Below, one piece after another: positions 2,082 through 62,887 of a stretch of DNA of 64,000 nucleotides (position 1 is the stretch's first letter; the number at the start of each line of letters is the position of its first letter). The stretch comes from Leucoraja ocellata (taxonomy: Eukaryota): NCBI GenBank assembly GCA_036785375.1, contig JAWMAR010000201.1, positions 186,001-250,000 of the forward strand, given 5' to 3'. A program made the translations under genes and the position numbers. The notes beneath the pieces were generated by a model. The model saw nothing but the letters and a program-made list of their open reading frames with translations. It ran no database searches and was not told the origin of the DNA.

Positions 2082-2131
2082 TCATTCAGTCTTGTGAGGC
2101 CTGTCTGCAGTTCCACTGACAGGGTGGGCGC
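2082..2131 (-). CDS. Gene A exon 5, cytoplasmic tail [16 protein letters not shown]
   Basis: Branch-point-like cactgac, long pyrimidine tract and cacag acceptor. In-frame TGA at 2084-2082. Conserved in gene B. Confidence 0.75.
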
Positions 2132-5100
2132 CTGTGGGGAGAGAGATAGGAGAGAAGTCAGTGCACCCTACGAGAGTCCACATGAGATGAAGCACCTGTC
2201 CGTTTACCTTCACCCTCGCCTCTATCCAGTGACCTTAGCGTTCCTTCCAGCTGAGAAAGACGTTCACATGCACCTCCTCTAACCTCAATTACTACATCCA
2301 GTTTTCCCAACATGGCCTCCTGTACACTGGGCAGGCCAAGCACGGACTCATTGTCTGTTTCAACGAACAGTTACGGTTGGTCCGCCAATGCCAACTGTAT
2401 TTCCCATTTGCTATCATTTTAACTCCCCTCCCCATTCCCACACTTACTTTTCTGTCCTAGGCCTCATCCATTGTCAGAGTGAGGCCATACACTAAATGGA
2501 GGACCACCTCGTATTCCATGTGGATAGCTCAAAAAACCCAGCAAAATAAATATTAAATTCTCCAATTTTAGGTCACCACTTACTAATTATCCCCATCTGG
2601 CTTCACAATCTGGAGCTCTTAAACCTGTCTCTCACCTTCCTTTCTTATCTCTGGCCTCTGTTTTAACCATCTGCCTATCAACAACCACCCTCTCGAGAGA
2701 GAGATGTGTGCTGCTGTAAAACTGGATGCCGGGCATACCGAGACAAGTATTCTTTTTGTCCTCTCTTGCCAAAAAAACAAATTTGTAACTAAACAGATGT
2801 AACTAAAGCCTTTTTCTGTTCTACTAGTCGGATCCTTGAGCCTAAGGTGGACACAAAATGCTGGAGTAACTCAGCGGGACAGGCAGTATCTCTGGAGAGA
2901 AGGAATGGGTGATGTTTCCGGTCGAGACTCTTCTTCAGATTGCTGGCAGGGCAGTGGGCGGGACAGGGATAGAATGTAGTCGGAGACAGTAAGAGATGGG
3001 AGAACTGGGAAGGGAGCGGGGATAGAAAGATCGGGAAAGCAAGGGCTATTTGATGTCAATATTCATACCGCTGGGGTGTAAGCTACGCAAGCAAAATATG
3101 AGGTGCTGTTCCTCCAATTTGCGCTAATCACTCTAAGAATGTAGAAGGCACAGGACCGAAAAGTCAGATTGGGAATGGGAGGGTGAGTTAAACTGCTGAG
3201 GAACCGGGAGATCAGGTAGGTTAAGGCAACTGAACGGAGGTGTTCAGCGAAACGATCGCTGAGCCTGCGCTTGGTCTCACCAATGTACAGAAGTTGATAC
3301 CTGGAACAGCGGATACCATAGATGAGGTTGGAGGAGGTGCAAGTGAACCCCTGCCTCACCTGAAATGACTGTTGGGGTCCTTGGATGGAGTTGAAGGGGG
3401 AGGTATAGGGACAGGTGTTGCATCTCCTGCAGTTACAGGGGAAAGTACCTGGGGAGAAGGTGGTTTGAGTGGGAAGGGCTGAGTTGACTAGGGAGTTACG
3501 GAGGAAAGGGTGTCTGCAGAAAGCAGAAAGGGGTGGAGATGGGAAGATGTTGCCAGTAGTGGGATCCCGTTGGAGGTGGTGAAAGTGTTGGAGGATTATA
3601 TGTTGTATGCAACGGCTGGTGGGGTGCAAGGTGAGGCCAAGTGGGACTCTTTCCTTGTTGCGAATGGGGAGCAAGAGCAGAGCTGCGGGATATCGAGGAG
3701 ACCCTAGTGGGAGCCTCATCTATAATGGAAGAGTCAAAATTCCGTTTCCTATAGAATGAGGACATCTCCGATGATCATGGAAAGCCTAGTCCTGGGTGCA
3801 GATGCAGCATAGATGAAGGAATTGGGAGTAGATGACAGTCTTTTCAGGAAGCAGGGTGGGAAGAAGTGTAGTCTCGATATCTATGGGAGTCAGTAGGTTA
3901 GTAGTAGATGTCGGTCAATAGTCTGTCTCCTGTGATGGAGACGGTGATATTCAGAAACGGTAGGGAGAGTTCGGAGATGGTCCAAGCGAACCTGGTTCCT
4001 TGCTGCAGCTACTCCAGCACTTTGTGACCTTTTCTGAATTAAACAATGGCTGCAGTTCATTGTTTCTACATTTTAACTGCAAACACTTAAAAACAGCACT
4101 CACTGATGATGTGGGTGGCGACAGTGACTGAGATGAGAATCAGAAGCAGGACGGCTGTGACCGTGGCCCTCAACCAACATCCACGGAGACAGCTACTCAA
4201 CCCTGGTGAAAGAAGAGGGGATCACTCATCAGAGAGACTGCACTGGGCCTTGTTCACAAACTCAGCAAGAACTCTTGGCCCGCACTGTAGACTGACATCA
4301 AATAACTGTGACAGCGCTGTCCATTTACACACAGAGCATGGATAAAACACTGCTGCAGAGTGCCTTGTCAAGATCAATGGCTCTTTGTTGGCTCCCATTG
4401 TGTCCCTGGAGAGGGAACATGTGGTGTCCACGGGGACTCTGGTGGCCTTCCGTGAACAATGACCTTCCGCATCTTTACAATGAATGCATTGTAAAGATGC
4501 CATTAGTGTTTTATGATGATTGCCTGATGCAATGTGACTTGAACATTTTTGTACTTTCTGGTACACTGTAATATGCAATTACTGAATAAAGTCCTTGGAA
4601 GGGAAAACAAAACGTGAAGCTCCCTCTGCACTGTCTCAATGAACAATTAAACCACCACATTCTTCAAACATGATTCGCCCTCTGACACTCACCAGATGTG
4701 GTCTGTTTGCAGATGTCCTTCAACCGGATTTCTGCCGTGCCTTCACTGACCGGGTTCGTGGCCTCACACCTGTACACAACGTCCCCGACCTCTGCTGTGT
4801 GATGAACCTGTATTGTCTTTCCATGTCCCTCGACGTGATGGGTGCTGTCGTTTCCCACAGCTTCCCTCCACCACGTGAAGCTGGTGGAGTGGCCGGATGT
4901 CATGTAGCAGGTCAGGGTGAAGTCGCAGATCTCAGTGATGTTCTCGGCCTTGATCTGTGTTCCTGACACGGGCTCTGAGGTTGAGCAGAGGGAAGCAAGA
5001 CGAGTAAAGGAGATACTTGTAAACCCCTCGATACCCCATAACCCGTCTCCAAGAGCCACAAGCCATGAATGAGCCGATTCCAGCTCATTTCCACCCACCA

Positions 5101-8100
5101 GTTTAACTCTTCCCTCCCCATTCAGTTCAGCCAGTTGTTGCTGGAGGAAGTCCACACGTGTCATGTGCCCCCTTCCCGAACACTCCACGCACCCATCCAC
5201 AAACTCTCCACTGTGTCCTGTTTATGGCTCTGTTCCCTGGGAATCTCTCCAGTTCCATATCTTTTGTCACTTGTCAGTGGTCCCAGTGTTCCTTAAAAGC
5301 CTGAGTGTGACCCAACTCAGACCGGCCCAGAACCTGGCCAACAGTGGCAGCCCTGGGACTGTGATGGGCATAGACCCAGACTGGGTAGCGTGCTGTGTTC
5401 CAGAGTGAATCCAGCACGTGCAGATCCTGGGTCACCTATTGTAGTAGGATCTTGATTAGTTGGGCAGGTAAGCTGATAGAATAGAATAGAATACCTTTAT
5501 TGTCATTCAGACCTTACGGTCTGAACGAAATTTTGTGCCTGCAGTCATACATACAATCACACAATAAAAACAACAATAAACACCTAAATTAACATCCACC
5601 ACAGTGAAATATCCAAGCACCTCCTCACTGTGGTGGAGGCAAAAATCTTAGGGCTGCAGTCTCTTCCCTCCTCTTCTCCCTCTGCGCTGAGGCGATACCC
5701 CACCGGGCGATGGTACAACCAGTCCCGCGGCTCACCGAACCCCGCAAACGGGCCGGCTCAAACACCGCGGCCCGGGGTGGTCGAAGCTGCCGCCCTCCAG
5801 TCCAGCGGACGCAGCCGCTGGCCCACGGCTGAACCCAGGACTCAGGTCATTGCTGCCAGAACGCCGTCCCAGCCACCGGAGCACCGTTCAAGCCCCGAGC
5901 CGGATCGCCCTCACGTGAGTGCCGTTCCTCCCTCGAGCTGGGCCGCTCTGACGGGAGTGCCGTTCCACCCTCGGGCTAGGCCGCTCCCTCGGGCTAGGCA
6001 ATGGATGGTTAATGGAGTTCAGGTTTGGTCACCCTGCTACAGGAAGGATGCTGTTCGGCTGGAAAGAGTGCAGGGAAGATTTACAAGAATTTGGCTGGGA
6101 CGTGAGGGCCAAAGCTATAGGGAGAGTTTGGGCAGGCTAGGACTTTATTCTTTGGAGCACAAGGATGATCTGTATAATATACATCTTATAGAAGTTTAGT
6201 TTAGAGATACAGTGTAGAAACAGGCCCTTCAGCCCACCGAGTCCACACAGACCATCATGCACCTCCGATTTCTGGATTCTCTCCCTATTTAGAAAATAGT
6301 CTACGCCTTTATTCCTCCGAACAAAATGCATCATTCCACACTTTGCTACACTATATTCCATCTGCCACTTCTGCCCACAATCCCAAGTCCTTCTGCAGAC
6401 TCCTTGCTTTCTCTACACTACCTGCCCTTCCGCCTATTTTCGTATCATCTGCAAACTTTGCCACAAAGCCTTCAATCCCCTCATCCAAATCATTTATATA
6501 TATACAACTAGAAGAGTAGCAGCCCCAGCACCGACCCCTGTGGAACTCCACTAGTCACTGGCAGCCAACCAGAATAAGCCCCCTTTATTGCCGCTCTTTG
6601 TCTTCTGCCATCCAGCCAGCCTGCTATCCATGCTAGTATCTGCCCTTTGATACTGTGGGCTCTCATCTTCCTTATCAGCCTCACGTGTGGCACCTTATCA
6701 AAGGCTTTTTGAAAATCTAGGTAAACAACATCTACTGACTCTCCTTTGTCTGTCCTGCTATTTATTTCTTCAAAGAATTCCAACAAATGAGTCAAGCAAG
6801 ACTTCCCCTTCACAAAGCCATGCTGGCTTCGGCTTATTTTATCATGAACTAAGCACTCCTAACCTCATCATTTATAATGGACACTAAAATCTTACCAACC
6901 ACCGGTCAGACTAACCAGCCTAGAGATCCCACTATTCTGCTGGTTTTTACACACAAAAAGAAAACGCCTCTGAAGCAAAATTTACAGCCAGATTTATCAC
7001 TTCTGAGATTTTAGATACCAAAGGAATCAAGAAAAAACACAAATAATGCCTCACTGAAATGCAGCGAGCAAACGCGATAATTCCCAATATTTTCAATTTC
7101 AATATCTGCACGGCCAATATTTGCCAAGCACTTTAGCTGTTGTTGTCCCTTCAGCTCTCGCTTCTCTTCATTCCGCTTCACTTTTGGAATTCTGAAATTG
7201 GGTACATGTCTCTCACGCTTACCCCGATTTCCACAATTTTTTACAGCGCAAAAATTCAACATTTTGGCGGTTTTTAACAGGTAGGAAAGTACGCGTTTCG
7301 TGTATTAACAACATATACCGGAAGCTGCGATGTCCTCCAGATGGATTGAGAGACTCCGTGCGTCAAGCCCTATGACCCAGTGACCTTAAGTGCAACCTCC
7401 CTATCGGCAATTTTCTAATCATCTAGGACCTCTCCTGTCTCTAGTGATTCTTGAAATACCACTGTCAATGCCTCCAGAATTTCTAAAGCCAACTCTTTCA
7501 GAACCTTAGGCTGCAGTCCATCTGGTCCAGGTGATTTATCCACCTTCAGCCCTTTCAGCTTCCCAAGCACCTGCTCCTTAGTAATAACCACTCCACTAAC
7601 TTCCACCCTCTGAGTCTCTTGGTTTCAGGCACGTTGCTGGTGTCTTCCACTGTGAAGACTGATGCAAAAGGTTATTCAACTCCCCTGCCATTTCTTTATT
7701 CCCCATTATCACTTCTCCTGCATCATTCTCTCATGGCCCAACTTCCACTTTTGCTTCTTTCTTACTCTTTATATAACTGAAAAAACTTTTGCCCTCCTCT
7801 TTTATATTTTTGGCTGGCTTACGTTCGTATTTCATCTTTTCTCCCCATATTGCCTTTTTAGTTATCTTCTTTGAAAGCTTCCCAATCCCCCCACTAATCT
7901 TTGCTATGTTATATCCCTTCTCTCTTAGTTTTATACTATCCTTGATTTTCCTTGTCAGCAACGGTCACCTCTTTCTCCCCCAAGAATCATTCTTCCTCTT
8001 TGGAATGAAAAGATCCTGCATCTTCCAGATTATGCCCAGAAATTCCTGCCATTGCTGTTCCGCCATCACCCCTACTAGGGTTTCTTTTCCAGTGAAATTT

Positions 8101-11100
8101 GGCCAGCCCCTTCTTCATGCCTCTGTAGTCCCCTTTACTCAGCTGCAATACTGACACATCCGATTCTCCCAATTAAATTGTAGATTAAAATTTATCATGT
8201 TGTGGTTGTTACCTCCTAATGGTTCCTTTACCTTGAGTTCCCTTATCAAATCCCGTTCATTACATAACACTAAATCCAGAATTGCCTTTTCCCTATTAGG
8301 CTCCAGTACAAGCTGCTCCAAGAATCCATCTCGGAGGAACTACAAATTCCCTTTCTTGGGTCCAGTACCAACCTGATTTTCACAGTCACTCTGCATATTG
8401 AAATCTCCCATGACCACCGTTGCATTGCCTATTTTTAAATGCCAATTTTATCTCTTGATGTAACTTGTACCCTATATCCTGGCTAATGTTTGGGATCCTG
8501 AAAATAACTACCATTAGACTCTTTTTCCATTATAATTTTTCAGGTCTATTCACAATGACTACATCTTCTGATCCTATGACACCCTTCGCCAAGGACTGAA
8601 TTTCATTCCTAACCAACCCCACTCCCTCTGCCCACCTTTCTGTCTTTCCGATAGGACGTACACCCCTGAATACTTGAATGGCCAAATGGCCTACCTACTC
8701 CTAGAAGTTATAAACATGATCAGCTGATGCCAAGTCGTAAAGACATGACAAAGTGTTCTCCAAAAGACAGGGGGGGGGGGCTGATATCTGACCACACCTC
8801 CACTAGAGGGTGCATGTGGGGAGGAGGAGCTCATCAGGTATGAAGAGCAGGATGTTGTAAAATTATTAACCATCCTATATATAGGTTCCGAAGTTCATAA
8901 GCGATAGGAGCAGAATTAGGCCATTCGGCCCATCGTCTATTCCGCCATTCAAACATGGCTGATCTATATTTCCCTTTTAACCCCATTCTTCTGCCTTCTT
9001 CCCCTAAATCCCGTTGAAACATTGTATGCCCAGTGGCAGGAAAATCTCACCAATCGTGACTCCCTCACTCGGGGCCAGGCATGGTCTTCATAGGCTTTCC
9101 TGACATCTTGGAGGCTGCGACAATGGCTGAAGGGCCAACAACCCCAGTCCTTTAAGTTGAGACTTAAAACTCATCTCTATTCCCAAACCTTTCTTGACAT
9201 CATCTGAGCGAGGGCTATTTGTAGTGATGTTTGTATTTAATCTATGAACCACTGTTGTGTAGCGTTAGTACCTCCACCAATGTAAACCACTTTGGCCAAC
9301 GAGAGTTGTTTGTTAAGTGTGCTATAGAAATAAAAGTGACTTGACTCCCCTCCCCGGTGTCCCGTCCCAGAGGTGCCCGGGGCGGCCCGGGATTTCCAGC
9401 TCGGCTCCCTACGACACCGAAAACCTGCTGAAGATGGGCAGCTGACGGCCCTGCTCGATACGGGGCGACTCGGAGCCGCTGCTGCTGGAGTCGTCCTCGT
9501 CGGAGAGAGAGTCTGCAGAAGGACGCCTGCCGGCCATGGGCAGGCCGGGTGCTCGCTGGAGCTGCTGTTGGTGCTGCTGTTGGTGGTGCTGGCGGCAGCA
9601 GCAACCTCCTCCCCCTTCTTTGCCCAGCCCCAAGCCGAGTCATAGCAAAAGGATTTGAGTATAGGAGTAGGGAGGTTCTACTGCAGTTGTACAGGGTCTT
9701 GGTGAGACCACACCTGGAGTATTGCGTACAGTTTTGGTCTCCTAATCTGAGGAAGGACATTCTTGCCATAGAGGGAGTACAGAGAAGATTCGCCAGACTG
9801 ATTCCTGGAATGTCAGAACTTTCATATGAAGAAAGACTGGATAGACTCGGTTTGTACTCGCTAGAATTTAGAAGATTGAGGGGGATCTTATAGAAACTTA
9901 CAAAATTCTTAAGGGGTTGGACAGGCTAGATGCAGGAAGATTGTTCCCGATGTTGGGGAAGTCCAGAACAAGGGGTCACAGTTTAAGGATAAGGGGGAAA
10001 TCTTTTAGGATCGAGATGAGGAAAACATTTTTCACACAGAGAGTGGTAAATCTCTGGAATTCTCTGCCACAGAAGGTAGTTGAGGCCAGTTCATTGGCTA
10101 TATTTAAGAGGGAGTTCGATGTGGCCCTTGTGGCTAAAGGGATCAGGGGGTATGGAGAAAAGGCAGGTACAGGATACCGAGTTGGATGATCAGCCATGAT
10201 GATATTGAATGGCGGTGCAGGCTCGAAGGGCCGAATGGCCTACTCCGCACCTATTTTCTATGTTTCTATGAGTCCGGGCCAGCACCAACCACAGTCTTAC
10301 GCCGCCCCCTCCCCCTCTCTCCCCCTTTTCCCCTCCTCCCCCTCGGGGTTGTGGATGAAGTGGCAGTCGGTGTGGGTACCGTAGGGGCAGAAGCCGGTGC
10401 TTGTACTTTAGGTGGCGGCAAAGGGAGCGCGAGGGCGAACTGCCACTTGTCGCCTTAGCGGCCCATCGGGGAGCGGGTTCCTCTGGAGTTAGAGCGGGTT
10501 TGGGCTGGAGTTGGCGCTGGCTGTGGGTTCTCCGTGCTGGCGGTGAGCCTGGGGGCCGGCGTCCCGTCGTCAGGAAGTCTCCTGCTGCCCCTCATGCGGG
10601 GATGGGACACTAGAGTGGGGTTGGGGAGAGACGGTCCAGTGGCGGGTTGGCAGCACTTGCGGCGCCGGGGACACGGGTTCGATGCTGGCTGCGGATGAGA
10701 GCCGATCTTCCCCACCCTCCGGTCTTCTACCCCGGTCTCCACCCCCCCCCCCCCTCTCCTCCCCACCGACCTCCCCCCCCCCCCCCCCTTCGGTCTCTCT
10801 CCCCCCCCCCTTCGGTCTCTCCCCCCCCCCCTCCCGTCTCTTCCCCCTTGGTCTCTCCCCCCCCCCCTTCAGTCTCTTCGCCCCCCCCCCCTCGGTCTCT
10901 CCCCCCCTCCCGTCTCTTTCCGCCCCCCCCCTTAGACCTCCCCACCCCCCTCCGGTCTCTCCCCCCCCACCTCCAGTCGTCCCACCCCCCCCCCCCCGGT
11001 CTCTCACCCGCTCCCCCCCTCCCCCCGCCGGTCTCTTTCCCCCCCTCCGGTCTCTCTCTCCTCCCCCCTCCAGTCTCCTGGGACGTCCGCGGCAGTCTCA

Positions 11101-14100
11101 CTCACCGTACACTTCCAGTCGGACTCTCGTCAAAGTTTCATCTCCTGAACTTGTAACAACAACCACCTCGTAAACACCAGCGTCCTTTCTCCGTAGATCA
11201 CGGATTTCCAGGCTGAAGTTCCCGCGGTGAAGAGTTACCCGTCCCATGTAATTGGCGTTCTTGTACTCAATATTCCCATTCCTGTGTACCGCTATCTTTA
11301 ATCTGGGTGATGTCCTCCTCCACACAACTTCCTCAACGTCCGATGTGACTGTGATGCCAACAGGTAAGGAGACCGAGTGTCCCCGAGCTCCGGTCACGGT
11401 GTCAGCGGCGGCCCCAGTCCCAGCTGAGGAGACAAGAGAGGCAGTCAGCAGGAGAGCTCAGAGACTGGAGGAGGAATCGGAGCTGGGAGAATCACAGATC
11501 ACAGGAGCAGGCCATGCGGCCCATCGTCTGGCTCCCGGCTCTGTTAGAGACCCGGCCCACATCTGTTTCCCTATACTCCCCAGAGCCCTACCATTCACGG
11601 TGTTTGCACTACTTTTTTTACTCCTCTCACAATGCATTGCATCATCTTTATTAGTGATACATCCATCTGTCATTGTTCCATCCATCCTATCAGCTCATCA
11701 ATATCATCCTGTAGTCTCCAGCTGTTGTCCTTTATGTCAACACAATAACCAATGTTTGTGTTATCTGTGAATTTATTAATCACACCTCCTACATTTACAT
11801 CCGTTACTAATGTGTCAATAGACTTTATGGGTCACAGCACTGATCTCTATGGGACATCGCTGATTGTAATCTCTCGATCACTGAAGCAGCCTTCCACCAT
11901 CATTCTGCTCCCTATTATCGAGCCAATTTTGCCAACTTGCTCTGGGTCCCATGGACCTTTAAAATTTGTCTAGTTTCCAATGTCCAAGGTCTTACAGGTA
12001 GGCCGGTGGATTATATGCCCTAATTAATATATATTGTCACCACTTCTTAATAGGTCACAGTGGATTGACCACAAATAAAACCAAGCTGACAATCTTTGAC
12101 GAAACCCAGCCTTTCAAAGTAATTAATCATGTCTTATTTTTTTCCAATAACTCCCCTACCTCTGATGTTAGGCCTGTAATTACTGGAGCATCCTCGATGT
12201 ACTTCACTCCTAAAGTTAAGGTTCACCATCAAGGACAAATGCGTATACCTTCACCAGGCACCCTGTGGCTGCGTACTAAAGACAGAGCCTGGCCACAAAA
12301 TGTGGCTTAAGCCCAAAGGCGTGCAGAATTCCAAAAAGATTTTTTGTTTTTTTAATTAAATATGTTATTTACAGCTTTATTATTAACATTATAACCTAAA
12401 CTATGAAAATGAAAAAAAGAAAAGAAAAAGAAAACAAGAAAGAAAAAAAATAGATAGTGAAAAGATAGATCGAAAAAGAACAAAAGAAAGTCCCCTAAAC
12501 TACCAAAGTAGTGTGGCAGAAAGATATAGAAATAAGAAAAAAGAAAGGTGGAGATATACCTTGCCCCTCGTCCCCCCCCCCCCCCCCCCCCCCCCCCACG
12601 CCCACCTCATCCAACCCAGCATCGGATTTAAATTTAAATTTGTGTTGCACCATGCTATTGTTGTAAGAATTCGGTAAAGGGTGTCCATGTCTTAAGAAAT
12701 TGATCTGTTTTTTCCGCCAAGACAAGCCTAATGTTTTCCAAATGTAGTGTCTCAGACATGTTTGTGAACCACATCTTCACTGTAGGGACTGTTGTGTCTG
12801 TTTCCAAAATTTAAGTATTAATTTTTTCGCCATTTTCAGACCATAGTTAAGGAAACGTCTTTGAAATATCGTTAGCTCAGACATACCTAGTGTGATCAAT
12901 TTTATGTTGTGATCCAATTTAGTTTAAAGTATTTTAGAAAATATATCAAAAATTCCCCTCCAGAAGTTTTGTAATTTTGTCCAGGAAACAAAAGAATGTG
13001 TTATGGTTGCTTCTTAGAGGAGACATTTATCACAGATAGGAGAGACATTTGGGAAGATCTTGTTCAACTTAGACTTTGAATAATAGAGTCTATGCAGTAT
13101 TTTAAATTGTACTAGTGAGTGCCTAACATTAAGAGAACAGTAATGCATACAGTGGCTTGCAAAAGTATTCATACCCCTTGAACTTTTCCACATTTTGTCA
13201 CGTTACAACCACAAACGTAAATGTATTTTATTGGGATTTTATGTGATAGACCAACACAAAGTGGTTCATAATTGTGAAGTGGAAGGAAAATGATACATGG
13301 TTTTCACATTTTTTTACAAATAAAAAACTGAAAAGTGTGGCATGCAAAAGTATTCAGCCCCCTTTACTCTGATACCCCTAAATAAGATGCAGTGCAACCA
13401 ATTGCTTTCAGAAGTCACCTAATTAGTAAATAGAGTCCACTTGTGTGCAATCTAATCTCAGTATAAATACAGCTGTTCTGTGAAGGCCTCAGAGGTTTGT
13501 TAGAAAACATTAGTGAACAAACAGCATCATGAAGCCCAAGGAACACACCAGACAGGTCAGGGATAAAGTTGTGGAGAAGTTTAAAGCAGGGTTAGGTTAT
13601 AAAAAAATATCCCAAGCTTTGAACATCTCACGGAGCACTGTTTAATCCATCATCTGAAAATGGAAAGAGTATGGCACAACTGCAAACCTACCAAGACATG
13701 GCCGTCCACCTAAACTGACAGGCCGGGCAAGGCGAGCATTGATCAGAGAAGCAGCCAAGAGGCCCATGGTAACTCTGGAGGAGCTGCAGAGATCCACAGC
13801 TCAGGTGGGAGAATCTGTCCACAGGACAACTATTAATCGTGCACTCCACAAATCGGGCCTTTATGGAAGAGTGGCAAGAAGAAAGCCATTGTTGAAAAAA
13901 AGCCATAAGAAGTCCCGTTTGCAGTTTGCCACAAGCAATGTGGGGGACACAGCAAACATGTGGAGGAAGGTGCTCTGGTCAGATGAGACCAAAATTGAAA
14001 TGTTTGGCCTAAATGCAAAACGCTATGTGTGACGGAAAACTAACACAGCACATCACCCTGAACACACCATCCCCACTGTGAAACATGGTGGTGGCAGCAT

Positions 14101-17100
14101 CATGCTGTGGGGATGCTTTTCTTCAGCAGGGACAGGGAAGCTGGTCAGAGTTGATGGGAAGATGGATGGAGCCAAATACAGGGCAATCTTGGAAGAAAAC
14201 CTGTTAGAGTCTGCAAAAGACTTGAGACTGGGGCGGAGGTTCACCTTCCAGCAGGACAACGACCCTAAACATACAGCCAGAGCTACAATGAAATGATTTA
14301 GATCAAAGCATATTCATGTGTTAGAATGGCCCAGTCAAAGTCCAGACCTAAATCCAATTGAGAATCTCTGGCAAGACTTGAAAATTGCTGTTCACAGACG
14401 CTCTCCATCCAATCTGACTGAGCTTGAGCTATTTTGCAAAGAAGAATGGGCAAACATTTCAGTCTCTAGATGTGCAAAGCTGGTAGAAACATACCCCAAA
14501 AAAGTTGCAGCTGTAATTGCAGCGAAAGGTGGCTCTACAACGTATTGACTCGGGGGGGCTGAATACTTTTGCACGCCACACTTTTCAATTTTTTCACATA
14601 GTCTCCTATTTGAAGATATCTGAAGTAATGACTACATTTCAAATGATATTTCAACTGTAATTCTTGAAACGAGAGGAAGGTCCCCATTTCATAAAGGTCT
14701 CCCAGCTTTTGAATTCCTAAGCTTTCCCATTGTACAAACGCCTTGTCTAAAGTAGACGGTTTAAACAAGGGATTATTGGCGATTGGTAAGAGGAGAGATC
14801 AATTTCTTAATTTAAGGATAGATTTCAACTGCTTCCAGATTTGTAAAGTGCTAGAGTTGGATGATCAGCCATGATCATATTGAATGGCGGTGCAGGCTCG
14901 AAGGGCCGAATGGCCTACTCCTGCACCTATTTTCTATGTTTCTATGGATTAACGGATTTTTCGATTTCTTCAGATGTATTGGAGAGAGAAGAATCGCCCC
15001 TATATTGAAAGGCAAACAATCTTATCTCTCCATTTTTATCCAGTTTACTAGTTGGCATGCATCGTCCATCCAGTAGATTACATTTTTAATATTAGTTGCC
15101 CAGTAATAGAGAAGAAAATTAGGGAGAGCCAGTCCACCGATTTCTTTAGGTTTAGATAAATGTTGTTTGTGAATTCTGTGAGTTTTATAATCCCTGATAA
15201 ATCACAGAGTCGAGTTATTTAAACAAGTTTTTAGGGAGGAAAATCGGTATTGATTGAAATAGGTACAGGAGTTGTGGAAGGGAAACCATCTTTATGGCAT
15301 TTACTCTACCTATAAGGGAAATCGGAAGTGTTTTCCAAAATTGAATAATGGCATTTAATTTGGTGATTCATGGTGGAAAATTTGCTTGAAATAAGGAAGG
15401 TTATTTTCTAGTCACATAGACTCCAAGATATTTAAATTTTTCCGTAGCAATTCTAAAGGGACATTTTAGGAGGTATGAAGAGTCTTGAGGTTTTATCGGC
15501 ATAATTTAACTTTTGTTCCAGTTTATTCTATACCCTGAGAAGGAGCGAATTGTTCTATGAGATTTAGTATATTTTCGATACTGACTTGGGAGTTGATAAT
15601 ATAGAATGGTACATCGTCTGCAAATAACAAAATCTTATTATTAGTATATTTAGTATTATAGCCATGAATGCTCGGATATTCTCTTATACTTTCAACTAAG
15701 GGTTCTATAGCAGGGGCAAATAACATTGGTGATAATGCGCACCCTTGTCTATTGACCTTGCATATTTGAAATTTAGGTGAGAGAGTTTGATTAGTCAGTA
15801 TTCTGGCAGTCAGATTGTTATATAACAACTTTATCCATGAAATAAAATTTTCTCCTAGGAATTTTTGCAAGAGATATTCCCATTCTACTTAGTAAAATGC
15901 TTTTTCTGCATCTAAGGAAATAATTGATAAGTCTTCATTTATCGTTCTGTGTAAGTTCATTATATTAAACAAGCGTCTCAAGTTATTGAACGAATGTCTC
16001 TTGGGTATAAACCCAGTTTGATCAGAGTGTATTAATTTACTAGCGTACTTACTTAGTCTTCTTGGCAGGGTTTTAGCTAATATTTTCTGGTCTGTATTTA
16101 AAAGAGCTATTGCTCTATATGATCCTGGATCTTCAAGATCATTATCTTTTTTGGGTATCAGTGTAATAGTTGATTCAGCTAAAGTTTGTGGTAATGTCTG
16201 TTCTTTAAATGCGTGTATATAAAGGGCATGTAAGCAAGGAGAAATTAATTCATGATTTTTTAAAAATTCGTTACTGAACCCATCTGGGCCTGCCGTTTTA
16301 CCATTATTCAGTGATTTTATTAAATAACGATAAAACGCCAGGCCTCTTCAATATCTTTTACTGTAATCTGCGCTCCTAATTCTTCGCGTTCCGCCACATT
16401 GAGTGACAGAAGATTGCAATTGTCAAGGACGTTTTAAATCTTTATAGTTTCTACTGAAGTTTTAGATGTGTATACATTTTGATAGAATTTAAAAAATCTT
16501 TCATTGATATCTTTATGGAGTGTAAGCAGCTCACCTTTTTCTGATCTAATTTTTTGGATGGTGTGATCTTTTTCCATTTTTCTGTGCTGACGTGCCAGGA
16601 GTTTATGCAGTTTCATAGCAAAAGGATTTGAGTATATGAGCAGGGAGGTTCTACTGCAGTTGTACAGGGTCTTGGTGAGACCACACCTGGAGTATTGCAT
16701 ACAGTTTTGGTATTAATCTGAGGAAGGACATTCTTGCCATAGAGGGGGTATGGAGAAGGTTCACCAGACTGATTCCTGAAATGTCAGGACTTTCATATGA
16801 AGAAAGACTGGATAGACTTGGCTTGTACTCGCTAGAATTTAGAATTTTGAGGGTGGATCTTATAGAAACTTACAAAATTCTTAAGGGGTTGGACAGGCTA
16901 GATGCAGGAAGATTGTTCCCGATGTTGGGGAAGTCCAGAACAAGGGGTCACAGTTTAAGGATGAAGGGGAAATCTTTTAGGACTGAAATGAGAAAAACAT
17001 ATTTTACGCAGAGTTGTGAATCTCTGGAACTCTCTGCCACAGAATGTAGTTGAGGCCAGTTCATTGGTTATATTTAAGAGGGAGTTAGATATGGCCCTTG

Positions 17101-17976: not shown

Positions 17977-18039
17977 CAGTATCCAGGAACCAGTGTGAGG
18001 GCACACCTGACTTGTCACGACAGACACAACGAGGAAGGG

Positions 18040-18949: not shown

Positions 18950-19310
18950 TCCAAGGGGCTGGACAGGCTAGATGCAGGAAGATTGTTCCCGATGTTGGGG
19001 AAGTCCAGGACAAGGGGTCACAGCTTAAGGATAAGGGGGAAATCCTTTAAAACCGAGATGAGAAAAACTTTTTTCACACAGAGAGTGGTGAATCTCTGGA
19101 ACTCTCTGCCACAGAGGGTAGTTGAGGCCAGTTCATTGGCTATATTTAAGAGGGAGTTAGATGTGGCCCTGTGGCTAAGGGGATCAGAGGGTATGGAGAG
19201 AAGGCAGGTACGGGATACTAAGTTGGATGATCAGCCATGATCATATTGAATGGCGGTGCAGGCTCGAAGGGCCGAATGGCCTACTCCTGCACCTAATTTC
19301 TATGTTTTTA
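18950..19310 (+). mobile_element. HER1/CR1 LINE 3' fragment
   Basis: [23 protein letters not shown]; absent from unit 2 at ~51330. Confidence 0.9.
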
Positions 19311-25285: not shown

Positions 25286-25413
25286 GTAATGTAAAGTTTA
25301 CAACTACATTGATCGCTGTCATTATGGTCATTGCCAGTTTGGGCCTTGTCATTGTGAACCGGATGAAATGCCATGGTGCCGCAGGAGTGCAGCAGGAGGG
25401 GACGTGCCAGCAG
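25286..25413 (+). pseudogene. Orphan transmembrane exon of a SLAM-type receptor
   Basis: ctcctctccatttag acceptor, GNVKFTTTLIAVIMVIASLGLVIVNRMK, then an AG|GCAAGT donor. Lies downstream of the inverted intron-2 homology (23130-23545). The frame does not join the next exon without a frameshift. Confidence 0.55.
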
Positions 25414-25919: not shown

Positions 25920-26062
25920 ACCCAGGGCCCACAGAGACAGAGACTATCTACACACAGGTCCAGCAACCACAGACATGCCCTGCAAAACTGCAGCCTCCGG
26001 AGGGAAACGAGACGGTAACGGGACACGTACTGAGCCATGGTGGAGGGGATCAGTGGGACTGA
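25920..26062 (+). pseudogene. Orphan cytoplasmic exon carrying an ITSM (TIYTQV)
   Basis: ctgtccctctgccccacag acceptor. The phase-1 frame DPGPTETETIYTQVQQPQ matches the SLAM ITSM consensus TxYxxV/I. Confidence 0.6.
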
Positions 26063-26127: not shown

Positions 26128-26225
26128 ACACACCCAGTTACTGGGGTACACTGTTCCTCACACACCCAGTTACTGGGGTACACTGTTCCCCACATACCCA
26201 GTTAATGGGGTACACTTTCCCCGCA
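26128..26225. repeat. Minisatellite, about 32 bp x3
   Basis: acccagttactggggtacactgttcc repeated three times. Confidence 0.85.
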
Positions 26226-26239
26226 CTGTATGATACTGT

Positions 26240-50412: not shown

Positions 50413-52055
50413 CAGTATCTAGGAACCAGTGTGAGGGCACACCTGACCTTTCACGACAGACACAACGAGGAAGGGATGGGGTTCAGTTAAGCATTGGGAG
50501 AGAGGACAGAGGGAGACTTCCCTCAGAGTCAACGCCCTTCCTACTCTGCTTGTTCCGTGTAAGTAAGTAGGCAATCGAGAGATGGACAGGAAGCCACTGT
50601 GGGAGGAGGCAGGTTCATATGAGAAGCCACAAAGAAAAGCAGAGTGCAGCAGAATAGCTGGAGGAAGGACAGGCAGCAAGAAAACAGTCCTGAGGCTCCC
50701 ACTTCAGGGGCACCAATGAGTTTCTCCTTGGTCTAGTTGCTCTCATCATCTCTCTTCCCACTTCGAACACAGCCCAATTGCTGCTCATTATCACAACCAC
50801 CTTAAAAGGAGTAAGACTATTGTCCCTCTCTCTCCTTTTGGATGATATTAGTGCACTGTCTCTTAGTCCCTTTCACTCAGGGAATATCTGTACACTGACT
50901 GTTGTGTCTCAGTCCCTCTCTCTCAAGGTGATATATGTACACTGGTGGATTCCCTCAATCCCTCTCTCCAGGAGCATCTACATGAGTCCCCAGGTTACCA
51001 CAGATTCCGTTCCTCAGAACTCTGTAGGTTGGAAATTATCATCAATGGTGTGTGGAAGAGAAACAGCTGCGACTGGAGAGCTAGAAGGCATGGGATGAAT
51101 GGGCCACTAGTTACCTTCAGAGGGAATGTGGGGATGTCCTATGCCCACCCGGCAGAAGATGCCTGCAGTAGCCGACAAATCCATCTTCATCTACCCCGGC
51201 GGTCTCACTAATGGGCTGTCTATGTTGGGCATTTGAAACGCAAGGAGGGCTAGCACCTGTATCTGTACACTGCCTCATGTCTGTCTCTGGAGCTACAGGA
51301 GATGAAAGAGGTCCTCCATGAATATTTCTCCTATTTTTTTACAAGATATAAAGACTAGGTTAATTGTAAAGGTTAATGGAGATGTCTTGGGGATAGTCCG
51401 CTTACAGTAGAGGAGGTGCTGAACATGCTATATCATATGAAGGTAGATAAAGTTCCATGGTCTGATCAGGTTTACCCAAGAACACTACAGGAAGTGAGAG
51501 AAGAATTTATGGGATCCCTGGCTGAGATACATGGGTGAGGTACCAGAAGATCGAATAGTGGTTGATGTTGTGCCTTTCTTTAAGAAAATGCTGGGACGTA
51601 TATAGTAAGCCTTACATCTAGTTACTGGTAAGATACTGGAGGAGATTCAGAGGATTAAGACATATATTTATTTGGAAAGATGGGTTGATTAGTGATTGTC
51701 AGCATGTCTATTTGAATGGGAAATCGTGTGTCTCGTGAATTTAATTGATTTTGGAGGACATAACGGTAAATTAGGGCAGGATGATAGATGGGGTTTTTAT
51801 GGATTTCAGCAAAGCTTTGATCAGGTTCCACATCTCAGGAAGGTTAAATCGCATGGAATCCAGGGAGCTATTTGGATAACTAATTGGCTTTACGGTAGGA
51901 AACAACGATGGTGGAAGTTTGTTTCAGACTGGAGGCCCGTGACTAGTGGTGTGCCTTAAGGGTCGATGCTGGGTCCATTGGTGTCTATCAAGGATTTGGA
52001 TGAGAATGGTCAAGGCACAGTTAGTAAGTTTGCAGATGATACTAAAATAGTGGCA

Positions 52056-52713
52056 TAGAAACATAGAAACATAGAAATTAGGTGCAGGAGTAGGCCATTC
52101 AGCCCTTCGAGCCTGCACTGCCATTCAATATGATCATGGCTGATCATCCAACTCAGTATCCCGTACCTGCCTTCTCTCCATACCCCCTGATCCCCTTAGC
52201 CACAAGGGCCACATCTAACTCCCTCTTAAATATAGCCAATGAACTGGCCTCAACTACCCTCTGTGGCAGAGAGTTCCAGAGATTCACCACTCTCTGTGTG
52301 AAAAAAAGTTTTTCTCATCTCGGTTTTAAAGGATTTCCCCCTTATCCTTAAGCTGTGACCCCTTGTCCTGGACTTCCCCAACATCGGGAACAATCTTCCT
52401 GCATCTAGCCTGTCCAATCCCTTAAGAATTTTGTAAGTTTCTATAAGATCCCCTCTCAATCTCCTAAATTCTAGAGAGTATAAACCAAGTCTATCCAGTC
52501 TTTCTTCATAAGACAGTCCTGACATCCCAGGAATCAATCTGGTGAACCTTCTCTGCACTCCCTCTATGGCAATAATGTCCTTCCTCAGATTTGGAGACCA
52601 AAACTTTACGCAATACTCCAGGTGTGGTCTCACCAAGACCCTGTACAACTGCAGTAGAACCTCCCTGCTCCTATACTCAAATCCTTTTGCAATGAAAGCT
52701 AACATACCATTCG
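52056..52713 (-). mobile_element. HER1/CR1 LINE
   Basis: ORF 52786-52250 with [35 protein letters not shown]; (catagaaa)n tail; absent in unit 1. Confidence 0.92.
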
Positions 52714-54955
52714 CATCATGGACATTGAAGAAGTTATCAACAACATTTGATCCTGCACAGCTGGGTAGGTGGGCTGAAAATGGCAAATGGAATTTAATTC
52801 AGTTAAGTGGAAGGTTTTGCATTTGTAACATCAAGCACTGTAGGACATTCACAGTAAAAAGAAGGGCCCTAGGAGGCACTGTAGAATGAGGAACCTAGTG
52901 GTACAAAGTAGCACCACAGTTTGCGGGGTGGTGAGAGGGCTTTTGGCATGCGGGTCTTCATCATTCTGAGGCATGTCAGCATTAAGAAGGCCTGTTCCTC
53001 TGCTGTACGTGTCTATGACCTGATGACACTATGATATATCTCTGTCCCTCTCTCTCAAGGGAGATAACTTTACTGACTGGAGTATCGCAGTCCCTCTTGC
53101 TCAGAGGGATATCTGTGCACTGACTATTGTATCACAATCCTTCTCTCTCGGGGGAGATATCTGTACACTGACTTGTCTCTCAGTCCTTCTCTAGATCTGG
53201 CCGGCGTCGGTGGTTGCGACAGTGATGATGTTGGTGGTGGTTGCGGTGACGGTGATGGTAGTGGCAGCGGAGTCAGTCATGGCCACTGCAGCGGCAGGCA
53301 TGGCCTGGGAGTGGGTGCAGTGGGAGGAGCGATTGGAGTGGGGACACAGGCCGCGTTGGCATCAGGACTACAGGACAGAAAGCTATAACTGAAATCTGTT
53401 ATAAAGAGGTCTGTAAAAGCGAGTATTAATAACAAATATCTTATTATTAACTGGGATACATACAGTTAAAAATATATTGATGCAAAACAATTCTGAAAGA
53501 AAAATCAGGAAATTAGGGGGTGGAGGTTAGCATTTTTGTAAAAGTGATCACAATTCAATTTGATTTTGTGACAGAAAAGAACAAAACTAAAATTAAAGAT
53601 TCAAAAATGGAGTCAGGACAATTTTACTAATCCAAAATAAGTCAGCAAAAGTGAACCAATAAACGTAGAGTAAATCACTCTCGGGGCAAAGAAAAATGCT
53701 CAAGATGGTGCAGTATTAACATCTTCACTCAGAGAGCAGGGGTGAAGATCTGCCAAGTCTAGGCCAGGTCATTAGGGGATTAAATAGGCACAAGGGATAT
53801 TCCTTATCAGACGAGGAAAATAATATAAAAGAAAGGGGACTATGCTCTTGCGGTCAATATCAGGAACTGCATATAACCTCGCACCAGACTGGACTGAACT
53901 TCTTGAATACATCCCTGATCTGTGAGCTAATTAAATCTCTGTGGGGGAGAGGTTGTATGAACCTGGATCTGCACGATGCCCAAATTCACTGGAACACCAG
54001 ACCGCATTTGGAGTATTGTGAGCAGTTTTGGGCCCCAAATCTGAGGAAGTATGTGCTGGCATTGGAGAGGGTCCAGAGGAGTTTTATGAGAATGATCCCA
54101 GGAATGATTGGATTAGCATATGATGAGCGTTTGATGGACCTGTACTTGCTGGAGTTTAGAAGGGTGAGGGGGGACCTCATTGAAACTTACCGACTCATGA
54201 TAACCCCGGATAGAGAGAATGTGGAGAGATTATATATCCACTCGTGGATGAATATAGGACCAGAGGCCATTGCCTCAGAATAGGACGTACCTTTAGGAAG
54301 GAGATGAGGAGGAATTTCTTTAGTCAGAGGGTGGTGAATCTGTGGAATTAATTCCCCAGAAGGCTGAGGAGGCTGTCAATTGAGATATTTAAGGCACAGA
54401 TTGATAGATTCTTGATTAGTACGGGTGTCATGGAGTTATGGGAAGAATGCAGGACAATGGTTATATCAGTCATGATTGAATGGCAGAGTAGACGATGGGC
54501 CTAAGGGCCTAATTCTGTTCCTATCACTAAAGAACTATGAACTCATGAACACTATCCCAGTCTGGGTCTGTGCCCATCACAGTCCTAGGGCTGCTGCTGT
54601 TGGCAGGTTCAGGGCAGTTCTGGGCTGGGTCACGCTCAGGTGCATAAGGGACGATAGGATGATTAAAGACATGGAATTGGAGAGGATTCCCAGGGTACAG
54701 GTCCACAAGCAGGACACGGTGGAGAGTTTGTGGATGAGTGGGGGGGCAGTGGTCAGGAAGGGGGCGCACGCAGCACACGTGTGGATTTCTTTCAACTGGC
54801 TGAACTGAAGGTGGATGGATGAGTTAAACTGGTGGGTGGAAATGAGCTGCGATCGGCCTAACATTCACTCATCGCTGTTGGAGACGGGTTGTAGGTATCA
54901 AGGGGTCCATAAAGATCTCCTTTACTCATCTTTTTTCTCTCTGCCCCAACCTCAT

Positions 54956-55240
54956 AGCCCATGGCAGGAACACCGACCAGGCCTCAGAACATCGCCGAAA
55001 TTTGCAACTTCACCCTGACCTGCTGCATGACCTCCGGCAACCCCACCAGCATCAGGTGGTGAGGAGAGGAGAAGCTCTGGAAAATGACAGCACCCATCAC
55101 CCCCGTGGACATGGAGTGATGGCAGAGGGTCATCACACAGCAGAGGTCGGGGACATTGCGTACAGGTGCGAGGCCAGGAACCAACACTTGGCCGATGTTG
55201 GTAATTTCCACCTCCAGCTCCAGACAGTCTGTGGCTCGGG
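54956..55240 (+). pseudogene. Inverted IgC2 pseudo-exon of a CD2/SLAM paralogue
   Basis: EPMAGT...NIAEICNFTLTCCMTSGNPTSIRW* / ...ENDSTHH...[18 protein letters not shown]. Acceptor cctcag is mutated to cctcat and there is a 1-nt frameshift. It is preceded by an inverted copy of the intron-2 3' segment (54550-54955). Confidence 0.85.
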
Positions 55241-58334: not shown

Positions 58335-58655
58335 CGTACACCTCCAGTCGGATTCTTGACAGAATTTCAGTTCCTGAACGTGTAATAACTGTCACCTCAT
58401 AATCACCAGCATCCTCTCTCCGTAGATCACGGATTTCCAGACTTAAACTCTTGGGATGAAAAGTGATCCGTCGCCCGTACTCCTCAATTCCGAAGTATGA
58501 AATATTCCCCTTTGAGAATTCTATTATTTTGCTTCTGAGCGATGTTTTCCTCCACTCAATCTTGCCAATGTCCAGTCCACCTGCAATCTCAGGAGATAAG
58601 GAGATCGAGTGCCCCAGTGCTCCGTTCACAGTGGGAGGGAGAGCCTCCGGCCCAG
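58335..58655 (-). CDS. Gene C exon 2, divergent CD2/SLAM IgV domain (no own downstream same-strand IgC2/TM exon)
   Basis: GPEALPPTVNGALGHSISLSPE...IEWRK...[38 protein letters not shown]...IRLEVY; 321 nt, open frame, tttccttag acceptor, gtgagt donor. Confidence 0.88.
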
Positions 58656-62300: not shown

Positions 62301-62832
62301 TGGGCCAAAGGGTCCATTCTGTGTAAGAAAGAACTGCAGATGCTGGTTTAAAATGAAGGGGGACACAAAATGCTGGAGTAACTCAGTGGGTGAGGCAGCA
62401 TCTCTGGAGAGAAGGAATGGGCGACTGGGCCTCAGGTTTCAGAAGAAAAAGGGTCTCAACCCAAAACATCGCCCATTCCTTCTCCCCAGAGATGCTGCCT
62501 CGCCTGCTTAGTTACTCCAACATAATTCTATAATTTGTCTGCATCCGTGCTTCTCTATCTCCTGCTGACTATAGGGATGCCAATTTTAAATCTATGTAGA
62601 AGATCCCCGAAAGGTCTACTAAGAAGAAAAGCCCACTTGGATTCATTCAAAGAGCATTCTATGGTATGCTCCCGCAGTGGACCCCTGAACTAATATTGCA
62701 ATATGTGCTCCTCTTTTAAGTCCTCCTTCCCCATCACGCTTGAAGAGTTTAGTTCCTGTTCTGGAAAAATGAAAGAAATCCGCTCAGAGAGGGGGAAATG
62801 AAATAAAATGACTCGCTCAGAATGAAACTCAC

Positions 62833-62887
62833 GGATTGTGCTGGGGAGAGACAGCCAGAAGCAGATGAGCAGGCACCAAACATCCAT
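62833..62887 (-). CDS. Gene C exon 1 (signal peptide MDVWCLLICFWLSLPSTI)
   Basis: 55-nt homologue of the A and B leader exons with a GTGAGT donor. Confidence 0.8.

Follow-up and report, generated by a model that had tools for sequence, protein, structure and literature searches.

In mammalian SLAM receptors, one ITSM tail and the adaptor SAP toggle between activation and inhibition, and CD2 and SLAM receptors bind through the GFCC′C″ face. Mammalian SLAMF9 has a lysine in its transmembrane (TM) segment, in a place similar to that of the basic residue described below. CD58 and CD48 are single-copy ligands and are not known to have a conserved charged TM register. In teleosts (cyprinids), the CD2f genes form large clusters of CD2-like genes, with tails that are long, short, or absent.

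The expanded CD2/SLAM family of Xenopus includes members with Arg-bearing NxxR TM segments (Guselnikov et al. 2011, as cited in PMC4536121 and PMC6557307), and NxxR segments associate with FcRγ (PMC2413239). The FcRγ-binding TM type is described with a DYT motif and an acidic C-end (PMC6557307) and as having a single exon for both TM and tail (PMC2413239). The signaling of SLAMF9, i.e., as a ligand only or coupled to an adaptor, is called unclear in PMC7078004. The LRC/FcR-like paired receptors (LILRA/LILRB, PIR-A/B, and Xenopus XFL) present matched ectodomains on two tail classes, with an Arg-TM short-tail class and both classes intermingled in the cluster (PMC2413239).

The locus of the skate Leucoraja ocellata resembles each of these systems in part. 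As in Xenopus, some of its members carry an Arg close to where the TM segment begins, a class presumed to be activating. Like SLAMF9 and SLAMF8, the skate genes A and B encode V, C2, and TM segments and a short, ITSM-less tail; however, the SLAMF9 tail is rich in Lys/Arg, unlike that of the skate, and SLAMF9 is a single gene outside any converting pair. CD58 and CD48 also combine V and C2 with a short tail or none. The matched ectodomains on two tail classes recall the LRC/FcR-like receptors, although these are built on another Ig scaffold and the elasmobranch counterpart has ITSM switch motifs instead of classical ITIMs.

Gene structure of A and B

The window, i.e., the whole 64,000-nucleotide stretch analyzed, contains two predicted five-exon genes on the minus strand, A (2082–17976) and B (35849–50412). 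The study interval (2082–62887) extends from the stop of gene A to the ATG of a third paralogue, gene C. The exon borders of all three were set by a splice-site search plus translation and are predicted from the DNA sequence. The features of A and B are as follows.

17922–17976 (minus): gene A exon 1, signal peptide; 55 nt, phase 1; 16 of 18 residues identical to the Rhinoraja P0018 leader
11106–11423 (minus): gene A exon 2, IgV domain without the B–F disulfide; Pfam V-set E 3.5e-13; best PDB matches CD2 and SLAMF5; 91% to Amblyraja P0012
4693–4974 (minus): gene A exon 3, four-Cys IgC2 domain; Pfam Ig_3 E 2.7e-05; C-x5-C aligns with SLAMF6
4104–4202 (minus): gene A exon 4, Cys-containing stalk and TM helix, C-x2-R ... 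S(+13) ... H(+19); splice-site search and translation
2082–2131 (minus): gene A exon 5, 16-residue tyrosine-free tail and stop; 14 of 15 residues identical to Amblyraja P0012
1209–2081 (minus): gene A putative 3′ UTR; 92% identity to the gene B 3′ UTR
50358–50412 (minus): gene B exon 1, signal peptide; splice-site search and translation
45569–45886 (minus): gene B exon 2, IgV domain with one unpaired Cys; 91% to the V domain of ITSM-tailed P0024
41850–42131 (minus): gene B exon 3, four-Cys IgC2 domain; translation and Pfam
38241–38339 (minus): gene B exon 4, stalk and Arg-bearing TM helix; translation; register shared with homologues
35849–35898 (minus): gene B exon 5, short tyrosine-free tail and stop; 15 of 15 residues identical to P0012
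34967–35848 (minus): gene B putative 3′ UTR, with AATAAA at 34972 as its end; polyA-signal search

Each model comprises 804 nt and 267 codons with no internal stop. All eight introns are GT-AG and in phase 1, a pyrimidine tract is present at every acceptor, and the leader, V, C2, and TM segments each occupy their own phase-1 exon, a CD2/SLAM-like layout. Behind gene A, a search for four polyA-signal variants over 300–2082 found none. The original prediction of two full five-exon phase-1 genes is thus borne out and, at the level of sequence, A and B are confirmed as real, intact genes. The leader and TM exons are indeed hidden, as was claimed: the leaders lie inside longer spurious ORFs, and at a length of at least 80 aa only antisense ORFs are found at the TM exons. 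The description of a Cys-less IgV followed by a four-Cys IgC2 stands for C2, with cysteines 141, 147, 194, and 213 in both products, and for the V domains of A and C; gene B lacks the B–F disulfide as A does but keeps a lone unpaired Cys65.

Membership in the CD2/SLAM family

All three V exons (A, B, and C) match the Pfam V-set above the cut-off. The top PDB sequence matches of the V exon are CD2 (E 3e-6) and SLAMF5, a profile search ranks SLAMF6 first (2e-13), and Foldseek on a predicted model of the orthologue P0012, not of A itself, places CD2, CD2, NTB-A, NTB-A, and CD48 at ranks 1–5, with CD58 at rank 8. The C2 exon alone found no CD2/SLAM match in the PDB, the best match being MUC18; its first Cys pair (C-x5-C start) aligns with that of SLAMF6. 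Named shark and ray proteins, mostly labeled SLAM-, Ly9-, or CD48-like, make up 106 of the 110 profile matches. Among 20 distant relatives looked up, 18 are named SLAM-, CD48-, Ly9-like, or signaling lymphocytic activation molecule-like; one of the others is “Ig-like domain-containing” and one has an incomplete name beginning “signaling lymphocytic activation”. Since sequence, profile, and fold searches all rank CD2, SLAMF5/6, and CD48 first, the assignment of the predicted A and B products to the CD2/SLAM family, as type I membrane receptors with leader, V, C2, TM, and short tail, holds on sequence and on the modeled fold.

The RefSeq elasmobranch proteins “SLAM family member 5/8/9-like, Ly-9-like, CD48-like”, whose names are automated only, are direct homologues with a TM and tail as in A/B; examples are Amblyraja radiata XP_032898069-71, Rhinoraja P0023/P0046, and Hemitrygon XP_072886339. 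As independent support for the exon models, RefSeq models of other batoids share the leader type (P0018 and P0046) or the TM and tail (P0012, P0023, and P0028), and gene A is sister to XP_032898070 (100/98) in a 44-row tree. Judging from these predicted proteins, the family is elasmobranch-wide and already SLAM-like by automatic annotation. “Lineage-specific” was therefore an overstatement; each of the three V exons is matched by a counterpart in Amblyraja radiata (91, 86, and 97% identity), and a species-specific origin of the three V types was rejected. Some Amblyraja models are faulty, P0012 beginning in a repeat at its 5′ end and P0021 and P0006 looking fused, and the correct leader and tail exons mend such automated skate models. 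A literature search found no paper on elasmobranch CD2/SLAM clusters, which argues only weakly that none exists, as most subscription journals, including the Xenopus SLAM paper, lie outside its coverage.

Gene C, relics, and duplication

A six-frame HMM scan of the whole window detected only three V and three C2 exons, the third C2 being broken and on the opposite strand. The remaining features are listed below.

62833–62887 (minus): gene C exon 1, signal peptide; its leader type recurs in Rhinoraja P0046
58335–58655 (minus): gene C exon 2, an IgV exon that is intact but lacks a C2 and TM of its own in the same orientation; 97% identity with the first V domain of Amblyraja P0006 and 89% with Rhinoraja P0046
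54958–55232 (plus): inverted broken IgC2 exon (stop and frameshift); placed nearest to the ITSM-tailed Rhinoraja P0019 in the tree, without a star and by a long branch
25286–25413 (plus): inverted relic of a long-tailed paralogue, frameshifted exon for an uncharged TM, donor GC; its end resembles the P0019 juxtamembrane segment
25920–26014 (plus): inverted relic, cytoplasmic exon with ITSM-type motif T-I-Y-T-Q-V; tblastn of P0019, 71%, E 8e-10
26222–27157 (plus): inverted relic, last exon, second tyrosine motif split by an insert; tblastn of P0019, 67%, E 4.5e-10
28475–28732 (minus): remnant of the 3′ UTR end from another gene copy of the A/B type; 80% to 1210–1418; degenerate polyA region
1209–54789 (no strand): tandem duplication, 1209–23542 collinear with 34995–54789; 18 HSPs in collinear order, with 780 of 10985 aligned bases mismatched

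Besides A, B, and C, the window contains a broken paralogue in inverted orientation that has a long tail with an ITSM; no intact ITSM-tailed partner gene is present in it, the only ITSM being that of the relic at 25920–26014. The insert in the last relic exon is about 810 bp long (26240–27047), with direct terminal repeats of about 250 bp and a 4-bp target duplication. The window contains no other host genes, gave no Rfam match, and its DIRS-like remnant matched no Pfam family. The predicted third paralogue and relics were recovered as gene C, represented by its leader and V only, the inverted broken exons, and the relic 3′ UTR. Birth-and-death evolution also agrees with one tandem duplication, one truncated gene, and one inverted pseudogene; “expanding”, however, goes too far for a window with one duplication against at least two losses.

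Gene C could be an alternative 5′ cassette spliced into gene B rather than a dead third gene, giving V-C2 (268 aa) or V-V-C2 (374 aa) products on a common TM and tail. Both joins are in frame and stop-free, the Amblyraja model P0006 fuses a C-type V to a B-type V, V-V-C2 receptors are modeled in Pristis (P0007), and the V exon of gene C is intact, with 97% identity to Amblyraja. Yet P0006 is an automated model, and Rhinoraja P0046 is an ordinary complete C gene with its own C2, TM, and tail, so that simple truncation is enough to explain gene C. Nor does the 97% V identity prove selection, since neutral divergence to Amblyraja is seemingly low (21 of 21 residues in a repeat-derived stretch). 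We regard the cassette as possible but doubtful; skate leader-V cassettes such as gene C may share one C2-TM-tail module.

Charged transmembrane register and tail

The TM exons of A and B follow the register C-x2-[RK]-x18-[HQ]-[IV]-I-S and lead into a tail without ITSM. Of 112 homologues, 17 share this register, and they belong to 11 species of sharks and rays (six batoid and five shark). Within the 19 proteins formed by these homologues and A and B, the basic residue (R/K) is by definition always present, as an Arg close to the TM N-terminus in A and B and as either R or K in the homologues, while S/T at +13 and L at +8 and +11 are found in 19 of 19. None of the register members has an ITSM, a label assigned by a loose pattern, and at least two K/R directly follow the TM in 8 of 19 of them versus 37 of 39 ITSM-class proteins. 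The A/B tails have no Tyr and thus no cytoplasmic T-x-Y-x-x-V/I.

The Xenopus and skate motifs differ. Instead of NxxR, the skate has C-x2-[RK], S/T at +13, and H at +19; position −3 is Cys and not Asn, DYT is absent, +19 is His/Gln with no acidic C-end, and, unlike in the NxxR-TM type, the TM and tail lie on separate exons, 4 and 5. The TM segment alone retrieved no PDB sequence at E ≤ 10, no Pfam family, and one unnamed Atlas cluster at 0.83, at the level of a lead only; a word-index search using the TM plus tail region recovered P0012 and P0023 alone.

Two non-elasmobranch SLAM-like proteins carry the exact register, one of them being 67–70% identical to a turtle protein, and the best Atlas look-alike of the register-bearing P0173 is a SLAMF9-named cluster (0.97). 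In the 44-row tree, whose rows were chosen after the V-tree topology was known and whose deep branches lack resolution, the ectodomains of the register-bearing proteins, the two from outside the elasmobranchs among them, fail to group as a clade (AU p 2e-12); hence, the ectodomain tree gives orthology no support. That the C-x2-[RK]...[ST]...H module is an ancient activating SLAM anchor of jawed vertebrates, distinct from NxxR, retained in sharks, rays, and reptiles, and ancestral to mammalian SLAMF9, is a speculative and rather unlikely proposal. If true, paired activating/ITSM SLAM receptors would be older than the split of sharks and bony fish, and SLAMF9 would signal via a TM-coupled ITAM adaptor.

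Relation to ITSM-tailed receptors

The charged-TM receptors do not constitute one clade, which was rejected for both V (AU p 8e-57) and C2 (AU p 2e-7). Leaving out four of the 19 rows, which have no same-species ITSM protein, 13 of 15 charged-TM V domains are nearer to a same-species ITSM V than to any charged-TM V of another species; the two contradicting rows include gene A’s own orthologue, P0012. Starred sister pairs of a charged-TM and an ITSM protein are found in Cetorhinus, Scyliorhinus torazame, Heptranchias, Pristis, and Hemitrygon, and gene B likewise pairs with P0024, although P0024 is a record without a stated species, a point against the pairing reading. The V domains of the two classes are 83–95% identical. 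In Amblyraja, Rhinoraja, Pristis, and Cetorhinus, the longest contig has the same length for both classes, which hints at linkage without mapping it; the window holds only the broken ITSM gene. Same-species clustering is expected in any fast-turnover family, which weighs against reading it as pairing.

As predicted proteins, the charged-TM and ITSM receptors show a paired-receptor pattern, i.e., similar ectodomains with two tail classes. With the charged TM register and the ITSM-bearing relic, both overlooked in the original prediction, what looked like a generic array becomes a probable system of paired receptors. A further caveat is that P0021 is apparently a fused gene model.

Proposed function

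A and B are probably adaptor-coupled activating partners and would represent, within a paired receptor family of sharks and rays, the arm with a charged TM and no ITSM. The V domain would bind ligand via its GFCC′C″ face. Since the short tail would be unable to recruit SAP or SHP, the TM Arg is expected to pair with an Asp of an ITAM adaptor, most likely FcRγ or CD3ζ, and this pairing would give an activating signal countering the ITSM twin. Gene conversion or unequal crossover may keep the ectodomains of both classes matched, as would be expected if a pathogen binds the ITSM member. Against adaptor coupling, the motif departs from the known NxxR type as described above, and the Arg stands at the head of an 18-residue hydrophobic stretch, where it might be a plain interface residue. 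If sharks and rays too have a charged-TM SLAM class, on a different conserved anchor, paired SLAM receptors would be an old vertebrate design largely lost in mammals, and the family would be a candidate fast-evolving NK/myeloid receptor system of cartilaginous fish. Whether the TM basic residue engages an ITAM adaptor bears directly on how ITSM-less SLAMF9 signals.

Alternatively, A and B may be non-signaling counter-receptors or decoys like CD58/CD48, presenting V to an ITSM paralogue on the opposing cell, with the Arg, His, and stalk Cys serving anchoring, dimerization, or trafficking. The 16-residue Tyr-free tail, the lack of NxxR features, and the models of secreted, TM-skipping isoforms in Mobula (P0027) and Hypanus (P0050), which retain this tail exon, are consistent with this, and mammalian SLAMF9 leaves the same two options (PMC7078004). 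However, for a plain anchor it is unexpected that a single exact register, its polar residues fixed, persists in both sharks and rays while the ectodomains turn over, and a dedicated ligand need not follow the receptor V at 83–95% identity, although a self-ligand family could. We consider such a role rather unlikely.

Far less probable is read-through of the exon-4 donor, whereby the hydrophobic C-terminus would act as a GPI signal as in CD48 and exon 5 would be spurious or minor. The read-through stop lies four codons past the junction codon in A and B alike, and two shark members have just 2–5 residues past the register (P0082 and P0080), but other shark members have 29–42, the exon 4–5 donor and acceptor are canonical, and the tail exon is kept in skates, sawfish, and stingrays and used by the TM-skipping isoforms. 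Only the unspliced read-through ends in a hydrophobic stretch; the spliced models run into a conserved polar tail, and a GPI form was rejected as the main product.

Finally, a derivation from another V+C2 Ig family with a Cys-less V (CEACAM-like) is extremely improbable and was rejected as largely refuted: CEACAM1 ranks 2–3 in the profile search, by a score summed over repeated domains, and 6 in Foldseek, and the sole named non-elasmobranch profile match is a catfish CEACAM5-like protein, but CD2/SLAM proteins lead the single-stretch, V-only, and fold comparisons, the C2 start and the names of the distant relatives point to SLAM, and paralogues bear ITSM-type motifs.

Divergence between A and B

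The V exons of A and B differ at 49 of 318 nt, against a background of 6.8% (p 9e-8), and the residue differences fall on the GFCC′C″ front sheet (18 of 39) and not on the back sheet (0 of 17; p 4e-4). Conservation of the back-sheet strands is partly a general Ig trait, which tempers the front-face reading. Positive selection on V is not established, with a dN/dS of 1.12 that is not significantly above 1 (Fisher p 0.86); as synonymous divergence in V is raised too, old or converted alleles fit the data as well as positive selection does. The C2-TM-tail side of the duplication is younger than the 5′ side, with a divergence of 4.8 versus 9.1% (p 4e-15).

Gene organization

Self-comparison of the window revealed a tandem duplication (1209-23542 versus 34995-54789), and each duplicated block carries one complete minus-strand gene, A or B. 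A third paralogue, gene C, is limited to a leader and a V exon.

Gene models (exons in coding order)
17922-17976, 11106-11423, 4693-4974, 4104-4202, 2082-2131, minus strand: gene A
50358-50412, 45569-45886, 41850-42131, 38241-38339, 35849-35898, minus strand: gene B
62833-62887: leader of gene C
58335-58655: V exon of gene C, intact

The cluster predicted originally is real and correctly placed. Both A and B have the five exons claimed for them, with GT-AG boundaries and phase 1 in 8 of 8 introns, and each 804-nt model predicts a short-tailed product of 267 residues. The third paralogue was likewise recovered, as gene C, together with relics: a broken inverted C2 exon and, absent from the original prediction, a broken copy of the long-tailed ITSM class. 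A six-frame HMM scan of the window detected three V and three C2 exons and no others, the third C2 exon being the broken, inverted one. In this repeat-rich vertebrate DNA, modelled coding exons occupy just 1984 of the 64000 bases. An AATAAA signal lies behind gene B at 34972; none was found behind gene A.

A separate question is whether gene C acts as a 5′ cassette spliced into gene B. Both joins are in frame, and the Amblyraja radiata model P0006 makes one of the two; however, Rhinoraja P0046 presents C as a normal complete gene, and the cassette is a doubtful proposition.

Family assignment

Sequence, profile and fold searches all rank CD2/SLAM members first, in agreement with the family originally proposed. 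Each of the three V exons scores above the Pfam V-set threshold, and the V domain of A best matches CD2 and SLAMF5 in a PDB sequence search. With a 15-row profile, SLAMF6 is the top match, and the C-x5-C start of C2 is aligned. The fold search, for which the query was an AlphaFold prediction for P0012, the orthologue in Amblyraja (mean pLDDT 79), placed CD2, NTB-A and CD48 at ranks 1-5 and CD58 at rank 8. A CEACAM-like identity would accord with CEACAM1 following SLAMF6 in the profile search, via repeated domains, and with CEACAM1b at fold rank 6, but CD2/SLAM members precede them in both and lead the V search, making it extremely improbable.

Named batoid proteins account for 30 of 31 matches to the V domain of A, and named shark or ray proteins for 106 of 110 profile matches (3 are without a name and 1 is from catfish). 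V identity to the nearest relatives in Amblyraja radiata is 91% for A, 86% for B and 97% for C. In a 44-row V+C2 tree, whose rows were chosen after the V tree and whose deep branches lack resolution, the window genes fall inside a group of 28 elasmobranch rows (support 92/97), separate both from the remaining SLAM-like genes of sharks and from the rows for chimaera, lungfish, paddlefish, coelacanth and tetrapods. Databases already label this family SLAM-like, and the cluster itself is one of its expected members. No description of an elasmobranch CD2/SLAM cluster was found in the literature searched, although subscription journals or other supplements may hold one. In the accessible text on nurse shark T cells, Cd2 is the one family member mentioned (PMC10529500), and in a supplement row human SLAMF genes stand opposite two genes of the elephant shark (PMC3964593).

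A charged membrane anchor

The original prediction overlooked the nature of the membrane anchor: exon 4 specifies a stalk that contains Cys, and a helix fitting C-x2-[RK]-x18-[HQ]-[IV]-I-S. This register is present in 17 of 112 homologues, spread over 6 batoid species and 5 shark species and including one isoform and one probably fused gene model. When A and B are counted in, positions outside the pattern are fixed too: in 19 of 19 sequences, +13 is S/T and both +8 and +11 are L. None of these contains an ITSM, and their tails extend 2-42 residues beyond the register. A looser register, tested after the pattern had been derived from the elasmobranch set, occurs in 2 of 153 other TM segments and in 0 of 306000 shuffles. 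The two are non-elasmobranch proteins: P0147, which shares 67-70% identity with a turtle protein, and P0173, whose best Atlas look-alike is a cluster named SLAMF9. SLAMF9 signalling is described as unclear in the available part of PMC7078004.

The NxxR TM type, as defined in the accessible text of PMC2413239, has TM and tail on a single exon and associates with FcR-gamma. Xenopus CD2/SLAM members use it, with 70-75 genes per family, according to passages citing a 2011 paper (PMC4536121, PMC6557307). The skate TM is alike in its Arg but lacks the Asn, the DYT, the acidic end and the single-exon TM/tail, and is therefore not classed as NxxR.

Within the charged-TM class, five shark proteins with longer tails (P0086, P0088, P0091, P0095 and P0097) have a common E-L-D-G/A C-terminus, possibly a binding or sorting signal. 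Isoform models of this class from Mobula (P0027), Hypanus (P0050) and Hemitrygon (P0105) skip either the C2 exon or the TM exon, the latter giving a secreted form. Related receptors of stingrays and devil rays (P0001-P0005, P0038, P0047-P0049, P0051) have tandem V domains, no C2 and a Cys-rich, uncharged TM, unusual for CD2/SLAM.

A paired-receptor pattern and the ITSM class

A loose ITSM pattern is matched by 39 of 112 homologues. A V tree built from 86 of the 150 V domains, namely every skate domain plus those of single-V receptors, shows the charged-TM class dispersed; its constraint to one clade was rejected (AU p 8e-57), as it was in the 98-row C2 tree (p 2e-7). Fifteen of the 19 charged-TM V domains have a same-species ITSM protein for comparison; for 13 of these, that ITSM V is nearer than the charged-TM V of any other species, whereas P0012 and P0046 depart from this. 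Starred charged-TM/ITSM sister pairs occur in five species of the 44-row tree, and for B with the ITSM-tailed P0024. An old tail dichotomy lies beneath ectodomains matched within species, a paired-receptor pattern that does not by itself demonstrate opposite signalling. The analysis adds the conserved charged anchor, of a type we did not find described, and this paired pattern across sharks and rays.

The window retains a broken ITSM-class copy.

ITSM-class relic (sequence comparison)
25286-25413, plus strand: TM exon, uncharged, frameshifted
25920-26014, plus strand: exon with T-I-Y-T-Q-V, 71% to Rhinoraja P0019
26240-27047: insert of ~810 bp; terminal repeats direct, ~250 bp long, at 89-93% where ungapped; target duplication of 4 bp

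The insert splits the tyrosine motif of the relic's last exon. In copy B, the duplicated block ends just before the start of the inverted C2 relic (54958-55232), whose nearest row is also P0019, weakly; in copy A, the TM relic sits just past the equivalent point. The two relics may therefore represent complementary parts of a single inverted gene that was duplicated. The first 21 residues of the Amblyraja RefSeq model P0012 come from this ~810-bp element type, displacing the true leader.

Divergence and putative function of A and B

The V exons of A and B differ at 49 of 318 nt, against a background of 6.8% (p 9e-8). When strands are assigned from the predicted model, 18 of the 39 residues on C, C', C'', F and G are changed, compared with 0 of the 17 on A', B, D and E (p 4e-4). 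CD2 and SLAM receptors bind through their GFCC'C'' face. V dN/dS (1.12) does not significantly exceed 1 and dS is elevated as well, so positive selection is not separable from conversion with older paralogues. Divergence across the duplication is 4.8% on the C2-TM-tail side versus 9.1% 5' of V, as would be expected had the anchor module been homogenised recently. Residue 65 of gene B (V exon 45569-45886, minus strand; strand C') is an unpaired Cys common to P0024 that could link dimers.

Most likely, A and B, borne by a presumed cell type, would engage a presumed ligand through the V domain; with a tyrosine-free tail, they would signal by pairing the TM Arg with an ITAM adaptor, probably opposing or bypassing their ITSM twins. 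That they serve as ligand or decoy without signalling is unlikely, and a GPI-anchored product formed through read-through is very improbable.

Repeats

Repeats in the window
23900-25014: remnant without a Pfam match, resembling a DIRS tyrosine recombinase in its motif, with a ~300-bp imperfect palindrome (24712-25014) following it
13152-14594, plus strand, intron 1 of A: Tc1-like transposon in which Pfam matches HTH and DDE pieces of the transposase; terminal inverted repeats of 41 nt
3063-3719, minus strand, intron 4 of A: Penelope-like GIY-YIG piece, below the Pfam cut-off
33882-34766 and 39000-41500, plus strand: Tx1/L1-like RT pieces, of which one occupies all of intron 3 of B
400-1040, 9640-10270, 16612-17243, 18953-19310, 32457-33016, 52061-52714 and shorter ones: one LINE family, which we take to be CR1-like, with ~10 3'-end copies at 75-98% identity
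29516-31995, plus strand: LINE, apparently recent, with pieces of the endonuclease and an RT frame open over 550 codons (RVT_1, E 2e-31)
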